Position numbers and translations under genes: made by a program
Sequence record: PV683292.1
DNA from: Klebsiella phage HMGUkp2
Strand: one strand, 5' to 3'
DNA: 64,000 nt
Shown: piece by piece, positions 2,274 to 64,000 of the stretch
Layout: the number at the start of each line of letters is the position of its first letter
Numbering within the stretch: position 1 is the stretch's first letter
Notes under the pieces: generated by a model
Database searches by the model: none
Told to the model about the DNA's origin: nothing
The model's input: the letters and a program-made list of their open reading frames with translations, nothing else

Positions 2274-2642
2274 TTTGTACGCCCACCATGTGTACGCATG
2301 GGTAACGTATGATGTGGACGTTGTTGGTTATCCCCACGTAAAACATCCGAAACCAACGGTGATTTGCTACCAAAGTGCAGCTAGAAAATAAACGGCAAGT
2401 GCATGCTACCCCGAGGCGATGGCTAATCGGGAGTACGCCTCAAGGCCTATACATCCATCGGTGTATATCTTATCCCCGATAAATCGGACCCGGAACCTTT
2501 AAGCTAACGGTGTGCAACAGATAAGAGTTTAAACGTACCCCTTTGAGGGCTTGCGGGAGCTACAACCGAAAGAACTGTCGAAAGAAGTTGAACCTCGGAA
2601 GAACGTGCTCCCATGTATTTCTCCAAAATGGAAGACTTTATA
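2274..2642 (+). ncRNA. about 370-nt non-coding, GC-enriched, stem-rich region (candidate structured RNA or leader)
   Basis: No ORF longer than 27 codons in any forward frame. Stems include GAGGCG...CGCCTC, GCGGGAGC...GCTCCC and AACGT...ACGTT. Unusually long gap for a T4-like genome. Confidence 0.3.
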
Positions 2643-2825
2643 ATGGCTAAACAAGCAAAAGCAAAAGCAAAAACTGCAGTAAAAGAAGTTGTTGGTACCT
2701 CTAAACGCGCTGGCTACAAGCGTGCGTCGAACAAGCGTATCAATCAGACGGTTGAGAAAATCATGCGTCGGGCTCGTGCGGTTCTTCGCGATGATGCTTC
2801 TCGTTTTGGTAAGCCGAAGGCATAA
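2643..2825 (+). CDS. small, very basic protein (60 aa; MAKQAKAKAKTAVKE...)
   Basis: Lys/Arg-rich ORF followed at once by an intrinsic terminator; the alternative upstream ATG at 2613 has no RBS. Confidence 0.45.
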   Translation: MAKQAKAKAKTAVKEVVGTSKRAGYKRASNKRINQTVEKIMRRARAVLRDDASRFGKPKA

Positions 2826-2830
2826 GTTTA

Positions 2831-2856
2831 GGGACTCCTACGGGAGTCCCTTTTTT
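2831..2856 (+). terminator. intrinsic terminator GGGACTCCTACGGGAGTCCC + T6
   Basis: Perfect 8-bp stem, followed by TTTTTTGTTTT. Confidence 0.7.
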
Positions 2857-2872
2857 GTTTTAGTAGAAGGTG

Positions 2873-2901
2873 TTTACATCAGCTTTAGGTTGTGGTATAG
2901 T
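2873..2901 (+). promoter_or_regulatory. T4-type early (sigma70) promoter GTTTACA-N17-TATAGT
   Basis: -35 TTTACA at 2873-2878, 17-nt spacer, -10 TATAGT at 2896-2901. Part of a repeated 26-nt element TGGTATAGTACTCTTACACCAACAAA also present at 4374. Confidence 0.65.
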
Positions 2902-2930
2902 ACTCTTACACCAACAAACCGGAGAATAAA

Positions 2931-3296
2931 ATGAAAATCAATCTGAATGCTACTGTTAAGTGCAAAGACCATGACGGCTATAAAGCCCAAGTAGTTCATG
3001 AAGCCCAGTGGATGCTTAGCAAAGAGCAATTCGAACTGGTTTACTGTATGACTCCTGAGGGCCCTTCAGATGATTTCTCATGGAAAATTCGTTTGACTAA
3101 TTTCTTCACCGGTGAAGAGTATGTTTTGAAAACCCTTGTTGTTGGTAAAATCATTTCCGAGACTTACGAAGATGAAGACGGTTACTCAGAAGATGTAACG
3201 TACTACAAAAACGGCCGTCAAGTGGCTGATGACCTGATTGAAAAAATGAAAGCTAAAGGTCTTATTGATTTAACTCATTGGACCTTTATCGGTTAA
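2931..3296 (+). CDS. hypothetical early protein
   Basis: 121-aa ORF downstream of the early promoter. Confidence 0.5.
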   Translation: MKINLNATVKCKDHDGYKAQVVHEAQWMLSKEQFELVYCMTPEGPSDDFSWKIRLTNFFTGEEYVLKTLVVGKIISETYEDEDGYSEDVTYYKNGRQVADDLIEKMKAKGLIDLTHWTFIG

Positions 3297-62705: not shown

Positions 62706-62885
62706 TACTACGTGGAGACAACAGTCTCAAAATGACCTCAAGAGAAGCCGGTGGCTTAAGCTCTAAAACATGGTGAGGTCTCTATTCAGAAAGTTCTTGA
62801 CACGATAATTTGGTGGGAAGTGTACAGCCTTCCTGGATTATTCGAGTGAAGCCCTCGTGATGGGTGGAGAGCTTTCGAAATAGGT

Positions 62886-62961
62886 GCGGGTTAACTTCAG
62901 TTGGTAGAATGACGGGCTCATATCCCGTTACGCGATGGTTCGAGTCCATCACCCGCCTCCA
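62886..62961 (+). tRNA. tRNA with CAU anticodon (Met or lysidine-Ile2 type)
   Basis: Anticodon arm ACGGG-CTCATAT-CCCGT; T arm GATGG-TTCGAGT-CCATC; 3' ...ACCCGCC-T-CCA. Acceptor and D stems pair imperfectly by eye (possible 1:72 mismatch), so boundaries are within about 2 nt. Confidence 0.55.
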
Positions 62962-62966
62962 TTAAA

Positions 62967-63039
62967 TGGGATATAGCCAAGTTGGTAAGGCCCCGGATTT
63001 TGATTCCGGTATGCTCAGGTTCGAGTCCTGATATCCCAG
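62967..63039 (+). tRNA. tRNA-Gln (UUG)
   Basis: Acceptor TGGGATA/TATCCCA; anticodon arm CCGGA-TTTTGAT-TCCGG; T arm TCAGG-TTCGAGT-CCTGA; T4 also carries tRNA-Gln. Confidence 0.75.
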
Positions 63040-63045
63040 TTATTA

Positions 63046-63128
63046 GGGTCGTTGGCTGAGAGGGGAAGCGACGGACTGTTAATCCGTGTCTTAGGACAAG
63101 GCAGGTTCGATACCTGCACGGCCCGCCA
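63046..63128 (+). tRNA. type II (long variable arm) tRNA with apparent GUU anticodon; identity uncertain (Tyr/Leu/Ser-like architecture)
   Basis: Acceptor GGGTCGT/ACGGCCC; 3-bp D stem; anticodon arm ACGGA-CTGTTAA-TCCGT; 13-nt variable arm GTCTTAGGACAAG; T arm GCAGG-TTCGATA-CCTGC; encoded CCA. Confidence 0.6.
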
Positions 63129-63545
63129 AATAAGAAGCGAGACCAAACCGGTAATGACCTTGTTGAGGCCTAGCCCAGATGGATGCGCACTCGCAAGTCG
63201 TCGAACTGACGTTCCCTGTTATACAGGTCCCTCATTGAAACCAGGTATATCACAACTTGAAGCGGCGCAGGAAGATACTAGTTATCTTTCGAGGTATAGC
63301 GATTCAGTTAATGTGTTAACAAAGATTATATCTGTGCACGGGTATATGAGAGCCATTAACGCTTATTCAGCTTTCCGGAAAGCTTGAGAGATTCGTATCC
63401 CTGCGAAAGATAATTACATGGCAGTCTAAAGAGATGAGTTAGAGGTCCGTAAGTAAATGCCGGGACCGAAGTGGATTGTTCCCACATAGCGTGCTATGTG
63501 TACTACATCAAGCTACTTGTTTGTACTCTTTAGACCCGGATTCAG
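63129..63545 (+). ncRNA. about 400-nt hairpin-rich non-coding region inside the tRNA cluster (candidate small stable RNAs, analogous to T4 species 1/2 RNAs)
   Basis: No tRNA cloverleaf; perfect palindromes AGCTTTCCGGAAAGCT (63373-63388) and CACATAGCGTGCTATGTG (63484-63502), plus GTCC...GGAC; the overlapping 111-aa ORF 63052-63387 runs through tRNAs and is not credible. Confidence 0.3.
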
Positions 63546-63622
63546 GGCCCTGTAGCTCAATCGGTAGAGCGTTCCCCTCATAAGGGAGTGGTTGCATGTT
63601 CGAGTCTTTGCCAGGGTCACCA
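63546..63622 (+). tRNA. second CAU-anticodon tRNA (Met/Ile2), with weak or aberrant T-stem
   Basis: Acceptor GGCCCTG/CAGGGTC (one GU); D arm GCTC-AATCGGTA-GAGC; anticodon arm TTCCC-CTCATAA-GGGAG; T region GCATG-TTCGAGTC-TTTGC pairs poorly; 3' A-CCA encoded. Confidence 0.5.
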
Positions 63623-63830: not shown

Positions 63831-63852
63831 ATCAACTACTGAGAAAAATATT

Positions 63853-64000
63853 ATGACTATCCTAAATGAAGATTTACTTCCTTGCCCGTTCTGTGGCGAA
63901 AAATTCCCTTTTACGTATATCAGTTATAGTTGTTGTGTGTTAGAATGCAAATGCGGCGTTGGCATTGCCGGTTGTAAAGGTGGCGTTACTGTCGTGTATG
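63853..64000 (+). CDS. 5' fragment of a Cys-rich hypothetical protein (continues past window end)
   Basis: MTILNEDLLPCPFCGEKFPF...CKCGVGIAGCKGG; RBS GAGAAAAA. Confidence 0.3.
   Translation, partial: MTILNEDLLPCPFCGEKFPFTYISYSCCVLECKCGVGIAGCKGGVTVVY

Follow-up and report, generated by a model that had tools for sequence, protein, structure and literature searches.

The question raised by this locus is what fills the space between two neighbouring genes, rIII and 30.9, in Klebsiella phage HMGUkp2 (record PV683292.1), of which a stretch of 64,000 nucleotides (nt) was analysed (hereafter the window, with positions counted from its first letter). This T4-like phage stands near Klebsiella phage EI and the genus Marfavirus; over region 2200-2900 of the window it shares 98.6% identity with phage EI and 90-96% with the Marfavirus phages F48, PhiKpNIH-6 and Marfa. 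The gap (2274-2642) is a transcribed intercistronic region. It is made up of at least five RNA modules, all on the + strand, that fold independently of one another; they are termed A, y, B, C and D, and each is closed by its own helix. Between phage genera, these modules are acquired, lost and rearranged like cassettes. An earlier sequence-only reading had described the gap as a stem-rich leader, free of open reading frames (ORFs), in front of a small basic protein and a terminator, and had proposed a riboswitch-like leader, an autonomous small RNA or an RNA-protein pair. Its observation as a whole is partly confirmed and its interpretation partly supported.

Module B (2389-2531, + strand) is a four-way-junction RNA of about 143 nt, defined by the covariance model R1 and by covariation. 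R1 matches the window at 2383-2537 with 182.7 bits and nowhere else, and modules A, B, C and D each occur as a single copy in the window. Helix P1 (2389-2393/2527-2531) is AU-rich, and its sequence differs in almost every lineage and is always complementary. It is followed by the joiner J1/2 (GGCAAGUGCAU, 2394-2404), an invariant element of 11 nt that reads GGCAAG(U/G)GCAU across lineages, by helix P2 (2405-2414/2427-2438; 10 base pairs with a bulged A) and by the joiner J2/3 (CUYAWGGCC, 2439-2447). Downstream of the hairpin P3 (2448-2454/2461-2467), helix P4 (2468-2474/2520-2526) encloses a three-way junction with P5 (2476-2479/2484-2487) and P6 (2488-2492/2508-2513). P6 holds a near-invariant block, GCUAACRGUGUGCAAC (2503-2518), whose one R position covaries with the Y of ACCYGG. 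Altogether, about 60 unpaired positions of B are nearly invariant.

The RNAalifold consensus of a 21-sequence alignment (A1) comprises 41 pairs, 23 of them compensated, and independently recovers P1, P3 to P6 and five pairs of P2, the inner ones. With the outer half of P2 supplied by hand, the refined model has six helices and 38 pairs. In a MAFFT alignment, 97.0% of the cells fall into standard pairs and 24 of the 38 pairs have changed on both sides, compared with 25-46% of cells paired when the partners are slid by 1-3 columns. A model-based alignment of 33 distinct sequences gives 98.6% of cells paired and 27 of 38 pairs compensated; this alignment is biased towards the model, and the MAFFT result stands on its own. 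Over both alignments the slid controls yield 24-46% pairing and 3-8 pairs with double changes, and the observed values were reached by none of 500 shuffles. We assign the fold to the + strand, which is also the coding strand, because its G-U pairs would be A-C mismatches on the other one; one pair of P3, for example, is U-G in 28 of the 33 sequences.

Tertiary contacts in B were sought by comparing all alignment columns against each other. The result was dominated by clade structure, and only one combination emerged, tentatively: positions 2400 and 2445 (columns 18 and 67 of alignment A6) covary, with U and A in 25 sequences, G and U in six, and U and U in two. Position 2400 is the sole variable site of the joiner GGCAAG(U/G)GCAU, and 2445 lies in the opposite joiner, CUYA(A/U)GG. 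This pattern hints at a U-A or G-U pair across the internal loop beside P2.

Module D (2554-2613, + strand) is a bulged hairpin of 60 nt. Its closing stem (2555-2560/2607-2612) is followed inwards by two internal loops that are conserved, CUACAA and AAGAACGUG, and by an inner hairpin capped by a GAAA tetraloop. In alignment A3, 98.2% of its cells are paired and eight of its 16 pairs show double changes, against 0-3 in the slid controls. Module A (2307-2359, + strand) combines a hairpin, S1, with a second helix, S2 (GUUGGUU/AACCAAC), that probably forms an H-type pseudoknot, and the conserved sequence CGU(A/U)AAA lies between them. Across 19 phages (alignment A4), S1 is paired throughout (100%), with the exchanges UA/AU/GC and CG/GC/UA and double changes in two of its three pairs. 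For S2 the figure is 70%, in an alignment that is not structure-aware, and the variants GUAGU/ACUAC (EnC07) and GUGAG/CUCAC (Moon) occur.

The two remaining modules, likewise on the + strand, were recognised by eye. Module y (2358-2384) is a small hairpin with the stem UUGC/GCAG, the loop UACCAAAGU and GGUGA in front; its stem occurs in the variants UCAC/GUGA, UCGC/GCGG and UUGC/GCAG. Module C (2535-2553) is the hairpin GUACCCC-UUUGA-GGG(G)CUUG, and its loop is found as UUGA, UAUG, GAAA, UUAG or UCGA. The array of modules begins at the stop codon of rIII with a segment read from the sequence and left unassigned (2274-2306, + strand), which is lineage-specific and possibly forms a hairpin (GCCCA/UGGGU); T4-type phages have a different segment of about 120 nt at this position.

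In B, D and A, helices are kept by compensatory substitutions beyond the level of the controls, and these modules are conserved structured RNAs. Among the options of the sequence-only reading, that of a structured RNA is therefore strongly supported by covariation. By contrast, the description of the gap as stem-rich fails in thermodynamic terms, since its minimum free energy does not depart from chance (z = -0.43 for 2274-2645 and -0.48 for the core). As the folding energy is not exceptional, the sequence alone is no proof of structure, and we call the region structured because of the covariation across phages. This comparison also sorts the three stems that had been named. GCGGGAGC/GCTCCC is real, being the covarying closing helix of module D, and AACGT/ACGTT is without comparative support. 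GAGGCG/CGCCTC is present here but is not conserved: it competes with the evolutionarily supported helix P2 and is missing in EcS1 and in Slopekvirus-type copies.

The gap is indeed unusual in its lack of coding potential, as had been noticed. No ORF of at least 50 amino acids (aa) covers any part of 2274-2612 on either strand, and no longer stretch of this kind exists in the window; the only other one of at least 150 nt is 63843-64000, at the end of the window after a tRNA cluster. That no ORF exceeds 27 codons is true for ATG starts only; once GTG and TTG starts are counted, ORFs of 38 and 35 aa appear on the + strand and of 40-48 aa on the - strand. The gap is also GC-richer than its flanks, modestly so: the GC fraction is 0.455-0.50 in segments starting at 2101-2401, 0.37-0.44 in those starting at 1701-2001 and 0.40-0.41 in those starting at 2801-3001. 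Values as high are found elsewhere, such as 0.48 at 1601-1800.

To the idea that the gap is what remains of a lost ORF, or an ordinary spacer with chance stems, we give next to no credence. A spacer would agree with a folding energy no better than that of shuffled sequences, and a lost gene with the small ORFs annotated across the gap (ACG-C40_0208a, Marfa_223/224, KM16 gp260/261). However, these ORFs vary in frame and extent between phages, frame-breaking insertions and deletions occur, B is better conserved than its neighbour genes in five of six genera, and 27 of its 38 pairs are compensated. Within B no reading frame is conserved: there is no ORF of at least 50 aa, the small-ORF annotations are inconsistent between records, and insertions and deletions of 1 and 2 nt among the homologues exclude a frame. 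The sequence-only reading had regarded an intact ORF in related phages, or a lack of covariation, as speaking against an RNA; what is found instead, small ORFs differing in frame and extent together with compensatory changes, favours structured RNA in both respects.

Public records contain many annotations over the gap. Small ORFs of 33-65 aa are annotated there in records L001-L003, L005 and L087, in frames that differ between phages, versions of 30.9 with an N-terminal extension (68, 97 and 117 aa) have been annotated so as to run over the RNA modules, and UniProt has an entry named [quoted passage not shown]. These annotations, among them many small "hypothetical protein" ORFs of GenBank, are probably artefacts.

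How widely B is distributed was assessed with a query of 156 nt (2385-2540), which finds it at one place per genome in 406 phage records, near full length in 395 of them. The R1 model likewise detects exactly one copy in each B-carrying locus examined. The hosts most often named are Klebsiella, Escherichia, Enterobacter, Shigella, Yersinia, Salmonella, Citrobacter, Serratia, Raoultella and Erwinia. In the collections searched, B occurs in phages only, and the hosts are enterobacterial wherever recorded (a single record names no host). None of 5,426 complete E. coli genomes and 72,556 plasmids gives a match, and neither does, with an exact two-block pattern, any of 185,579 prokaryotic species represented by one genome each; as far as these collections reach, an origin of B from the host was rejected. 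Within the IMG/VR and JGI metagenomes, the genuine matches on full-length contigs are on contigs of T4 size, and a few others lie on short fragments. A looser two-block pattern, GGCAAGNGCATG...GGCCTAT, returned 28 additional loci in IMG/VR (L039-L067 except L041); these were discarded because all are GC-rich coding sequence and their number is about that expected by chance. Seven of 27 matches to GCTAACRGTGTGCAAC are likewise at chance level.

The copy of B in the window is 86-96% identical to those of five of the six genera compared, the exception being EcS1 with 73%. In the same comparison, nucleotide identity of the neighbouring genes is 61-72% for gp31, 65-75% for rIII and 67-84% for 30.9. 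In all of these genera but EcS1, the sequence of B is thus more strongly constrained than the genes beside it.

B is found in two phage families, always just after a coding sequence (CDS) or between cistrons. In nine of the 12 B-carrying genomes with examined context it lies upstream of 30.9. In Slopekvirus K41P2 and the related metagenomic contig L027, however, it follows uvsY and a small ORF and precedes the convergent uvsW.1/uvsW, with no same-strand gene after it. In Yersinia phage JC221, it lies between uvsY and uvsW, within a non-coding island of 830 nt that also contains y, C and an A-like element. Finally, the phage PKM.Lu.22.1 (76 kb) belongs to the Grimontviridae and is not T4-like; its copy of B (146.8 bits; 82.6% identity to that of the window over 131 nt) starts 5 nt after a CDS, and the order there is CDS stop, B, y and an intrinsic terminator (L086, 987-1226). 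The presence of B in a Grimontviridae phage implies horizontal transfer of an RNA cassette. No 30.9 gene is annotated or visible beside B at the uvsY-uvsW and Grimontviridae loci.

The non-coding islands of JC221 (L085, 797-1630) and K41P2 (L011, 779-1179), 400-830 nt long, lie between uvsY-proximal ORFs and uvsW.1/uvsW. Both contain B, y, C and further hairpins and end with a bidirectional terminator, and the small ORFs annotated in them seem doubtful.

These settings bear on the possibility that the whole array, B included, is a 5' untranslated leader that controls the stability or translation of the 30.9 mRNA, be it by keeping off RNase E or exonucleases, by exposing or masking the Shine-Dalgarno (SD) sequence, or as a ligand- or protein-responsive switch. 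We regard such a cis-acting role as unlikely, although it is not without arguments. The array lies directly upstream of 30.9 in the same terminator-bounded unit in the nine of 12 genomes mentioned, and in most lineages a small hairpin can pair the SD-like GGAAG with an upstream UCUCC. Inhibitory hairpins have moreover been described in T4 at the initiation regions of e, soc, 49 and I-TevI (PMC3014915). Against it, B is without a downstream 30.9 in Slopekvirus, JC221 and the Grimontviridae phage, in the last of which a terminator follows, and T4, T2 and RB69 carry 30.9 without B. There is also no constant expression platform, because the module beside the 30.9 start varies by genus (D, a plain hairpin or others). 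Rfam 15, searched with the region at the gathering threshold and at E-values up to 10, and with seven related loci at E-values up to 1, gives matches at chance level only, nothing relevant and no riboswitch. Lacking an Rfam match, a constant downstream partner and a constant expression platform, and with its modules shuffled in order, the array lends no support to the riboswitch-like leader originally proposed.

The same distribution speaks against the proposed RNA-protein pair. By tblastn, gp30.9 is present in about 1005 phage records, including T4, T2 and RB69, where B is lacking, compared with 406 records for B. The occurrence of B without 30.9 and of 30.9 without B argues against both a riboswitch leader and an obligate RNA-protein pair and for an autonomous cassette.

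The Lys/Arg-rich ORF of 60 aa downstream of the array (2643-2825, + strand) is real and encodes a homologue of T4 gp30.9. Its membership of this family is indicated by a full-length match to PHROG 1427 (E=7e-31 over residues 1-60) and by its conserved position before gene 30.8. An alternative ATG at 2613 would give 70 aa; the form of 60 aa, not that of 68-70 aa, is the right one because the start MAKQAK is conserved across genera. The homologues fall into 79 protein clusters. Those with a named source are all from enterobacterial phages, nearly all of them T4-like, except one labelled "Shigella flexneri", and many clusters are unnamed metagenome sequences. Apart from this label and one spurious enzyme name, all named homologues are "hypothetical" phage proteins. 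The resemblance to ribosomal or histone-like proteins that had been suggested is not borne out: gp30.9 has no Pfam family above cutoff and no relative in the PDB, and its AlphaFold 2 model, based on a 23-sequence alignment, is of low confidence (predicted local distance difference test score 63), with a disordered basic N-terminus and a single helix at residues 35-55. Judging by its composition only, nucleic-acid binding is plausible. It is not co-distributed with B, and we infer that gp30.9 is a separate small basic protein that shares the transcription unit by happenstance.

The 30.9 translation initiation region (2620-2642, + strand) contains the SD-like GGAAG at 2630-2634, which pairs weakly with the upstream UCUCC. 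The resulting hairpin is predicted in most lineages at -2 to -4 kcal/mol with z near 0. Such an SD-sequestering hairpin is weak and no more stable than in shuffled sequences, which counts against a cis-acting leader. The target consensus of RegB/S1, GGAGRAYARAA (PMC1702504), has no convincing match in this region.

The mobility of the modules is evident when their order is read side by side in the gaps of 13 phages. The order is A-y-B-C-D in the window, A-B-C-D in Serratia PS2, B-A-C-D in Moon, y...B-A-C in ACG-C40 and SP18, and C-B-A in EcS1 and EnC07. T4, whose rIII-30.9 gap measures 244 nt, has y...A-C, and RB69 has A-C; in both, D is relocated upstream of rIII. The position of A relative to B thus varies between genera. 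C follows B here, in PS2 and in K41P2, precedes it in EcS1 and EnC07, and follows A in T4, C40 and Moon. Similarly, y follows B in PKM.Lu.22.1 and JC221 and opens the gap of T4. Relative to T4, a clean insertion of about 155 nt is seen in ACG-C40 and SP18; it corresponds to the central part of the gap in the window, and it is by this clean insertion or deletion that T4 lacks B; the R1 model finds none in the T4 rIII locus. Module D also occurs between tRNA-Arg and tRNA-Leu in Klebsiella phage P8734 (146 kb), which indicates that structured modules also travel with stable-RNA genes.

Further hairpins were seen in several of these gaps. Marfa has two extra small ones between B and C (L002, about 1842-1905), and L020 has extra ones upstream of B; these additional hairpins are of the types UUGCC-GNAA-GGCAA and GAGAGG-UGAAAG-CCUCUC, the latter of which stands just before 30.9 in EnC07. 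Extra hairpins between modules in some phages suggest a larger pool of mobile hairpin cassettes. In P8734, the unannotated gap in the tRNA gene cluster is 320 nt long (L082, 945-1265), with D at 1201-1251 and a possible C-like hairpin, CCTTAGGGCTTGCAGG. This phage does not look T4-like: its genome is 146 kb and its record gives no taxonomy, and the other records listed for D are about 160-195 kb.

Such shuffling could also be a property of the DNA, whose inverted repeats might form a junction for recombination or module shuffling, a structure at a replication origin or the ends of a miniature mobile element. The clean insertion or deletion relative to T4 is bounded by an inverted repeat (P1), B adjoins uvsY in Slopekvirus-like phages, and the cassettes recall the promoter-early stem-loop (PeSL) cassettes of T4-type phages (PMC2839356, PMC4122927). 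Nevertheless, we consider a DNA-level element very improbable. B is single-copy per genome and without target-site duplications, and its roughly 60 nearly invariant unpaired positions would not be explained by a DNA hairpin. Its "terminal repeats" vary yet stay complementary and its G-U pairs suit one strand only, which points to selection on an RNA fold rather than on a DNA end recognised by a protein. With PeSL elements the modules share that they are small non-coding cassettes that mark the boundaries of insertions, deletions and replacements in hyperplastic T4-like regions (PMC2839356, PMC4122927). A PeSL, however, is a simple stem-loop with a promoter, present many times per genome; modules A to D are single-copy and promoterless, and B has six helices and unpaired nucleotides that are invariant. 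Membership of the island among PeSLs or miniature inverted-repeat transposable elements was rejected for its single copy, the lack of a promoter in 2274-2642 and the variation of P1 in sequence while it remains paired.

The gene order around the array is cd (278-838), gp31 (1558-1887), rIII (2025-2273), the gap, 30.9 (2643-2825), a terminator and gp30.8 (2931-3296). The rIII CDS (+ strand), for a lysis inhibition accessory protein, matches PHROG 1457 (E=7.7e-40) and is named rIII in near-identical Klebsiella phages; gp30.8 matches the Pfam family Phage_30_8 (E=1.1e-46). The unit of rIII, RNA island and 30.9 is closed by an intrinsic terminator (2830-2861, + strand), so that the terminator proposed directly after the small ORF is confirmed: its hairpin (2830-2851) has a stem of 9 base pairs, six of them G-C, and a loop of 4 nt, followed by the T-run tail TTTTTGTTTT. 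A terminator after 30.9 is also annotated in the records of PhiKpNIH-6 and Marfa. No promoter-like site was recognised within 2274-2642, and the T4 late-promoter consensus TATAAATA is found at 1888-1895, in the gap between gp31 and rIII.

Several other features of the vicinity may be mentioned. A strong early-promoter-like site lies 20 nt past the 30.9 terminator (TTTACA, a spacer of 17 nt, TATAGT and a TG extension), and the pair of terminator and early promoter (2830-2901) matches the PeSL arrangement described for T4-type phages. The gp31-rIII gap (1888-2024) contains a long hairpin, GGTGGAG...CTCCACC (1956-1996), followed by TTTT; in T4 and RB69 its position is occupied by module D, and a similar hairpin is found within the rIII-30.9 gap of IMG/VR contig L015. 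Four tRNA genes (Met-CAT, Gln-TTG, Asn-GTT and a second Met-CAT) form a cluster at 62885-63622. They are the only tRNAs of the window, and neither a tRNA nor a transfer-messenger RNA was found at the gap with ARAGORN and the Rfam tRNA model.

Taken together, we lean, with modest confidence, towards a co-transcribed island of autonomous structured RNAs in which B would act in trans rather than as a leader of 30.9. Of the sequence-only proposals, the autonomous small RNA is hence the one favoured by context, and this for the large module B. As no promoter of its own is recognisable, the island is probably transcribed with rIII, to which the putative late promoter at 1888-1895 and possibly promoters further upstream would contribute, and transcription would stop at the terminator after 30.9. 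B may then be freed by host endonucleases at its AU-rich flanks, or may work as a part of the transcript. That its unpaired nucleotides are invariant while the helices holding them vary suggests that it binds a specific partner in trans. In enterobacterial infections this would most likely be a conserved protein of the host or the phage, or else an RNA, and B might serve as a decoy, sponge or scaffold. That B acts as an RNA in its own right is argued by these same nucleotides, by its cassette-like mobility, by its occurrence in two families and by its position always just after a CDS.

The near-invariant junction and internal-loop nucleotides of B, framed by covarying helices, are also typical of small ribozymes. 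Self-cleaving ribozymes are common in phage genomes, and the position always just after a CDS or between cistrons would suit a processing element, whether a self-cleaving ribozyme or an RNase recognition structure, by which B or another module uncouples rIII from the RNA downstream. This explanation seems improbable to us. No ribozyme of Rfam 15 (hammerhead, twister, twister-sister, hairpin, HDV-like, pistol or hatchet) matches at E-values up to 10, no core motif of the hammerhead, twister or hairpin ribozyme is visible in B, and with about 143 nt and six helices B exceeds most self-cleavers in size.

Some observations weigh against a trans-acting island of structured RNAs and have to be considered. 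Folding energies are unremarkable, with single-sequence z-scores of -0.4 to -1.9 overall. The sequences come from related phages, so that some covariation counts represent few clade-level events, and much of the signal is contributed by the Slopekvirus-type, EcS1, PS2, EnC07 and Grimontviridae lineages. The suggested tertiary contacts of B (junction GGC/GCC; 2400-2445) are tentative, with at most one covarying position behind them. Lastly, B lies upstream of 30.9 in most genomes, and a cis effect on stability, folding or ribosome loading is possible.

Among known RNAs, the small stable RNAs rnaC and rnaD of T4 (species 1 and 2 RNAs), structured RNAs encoded in the tRNA cluster and of unresolved function (PMC3014915), resemble B in being phage-encoded, about 120-140 nt long, of T4-type phages and co-transcribed with other genes, and module D of the island in the tRNA cluster of P8734 has a comparable setting. 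B, by contrast, follows rIII or uvsY instead of lying among tRNAs and has neither a tRNA-like T-arm nor a CCA end. Homology was rejected as well, in sequence and in structure: with filters off, R1 scores at best 7.3 bits (E=0.42) in the T4 tRNA/rnaC/rnaD locus, and a direct reading of the sequences was also made.

The biochemical function of orphan structured RNAs often remains unresolved for years. B shares with GOLLD, ROOL, HEARO and raiA, some of which are phage-borne, the covarying helices around conserved junction nucleotides and the absence of coding potential; the comparative-genomics approach behind such families is described in PMC2864571. B is much smaller than GOLLD and ROOL, matches no orphan family in Rfam and, in contrast to these RNAs, is restricted to phages in the collections searched and embedded in a shuffled array of small modules. 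We regard B as a new family of orphan structured RNAs, a category that is itself known, and what is unusual about it is that it forms part of a shuffled island of RNA modules.

Small RNAs (sRNAs) processed from enterobacterial 3' untranslated regions (3'-UTRs) or intercistronic regions, such as MicL (bioRxiv 10.1101/341578), offer a further parallel. B always starts a few nt after a CDS stop or inside an operon, has no promoter of its own and combines AU-rich flanks with a stable helix, all features that RNase E uses to release such sRNAs. As a rule, these sRNAs depend on Hfq and have a short single-stranded seed as well as a terminator hairpin. B differs in its compact multi-helix fold, in which no seed is obvious, and of its copies only that of the Grimontviridae phage is followed by a terminator.

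For phage RNA biology, T4 serves as the reference system. No earlier description of B or of the island was found in Rfam, or in the searchable literature on gp30.9, the rIII-30.9 gap and structured RNAs of T4-like phages. According to a review of 2010, neither riboswitches nor trans-acting RNAs had been characterised in T4, and candidates were to be expected from related genomes (PMC3014915). B is a candidate for such an RNA, carried by about 400 sequenced phages of medical interest (of Klebsiella, E. coli, Shigella, Enterobacter, Yersinia and Serratia) and exchanged between phage families. Because T4 is naturally without B, it can be used as a null background for gain-of-function tests. It is conceivable, though rather doubtful, that B is the founder of a new class of trans-acting structured RNAs of phages and that the rIII-30.9 and uvsY-uvsW gaps are "RNA islands". 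If so, T4-like and some other enterobacterial phages would collect and swap folded cassettes (A, y, B, C and D), each with a specific factor of the host or the phage to bind. The cassettes might, for instance, act as decoys against RNA-targeting defences or hijack host proteins of RNA processing or translation. Such islands would be an RNA counterpart of the protein-coding accessory-gene islands in phage genomes. Should the modules be protein- or RNA-binding decoys, they would represent a new layer of phage-host interaction, one that would be relevant to choosing and engineering therapeutic phages.

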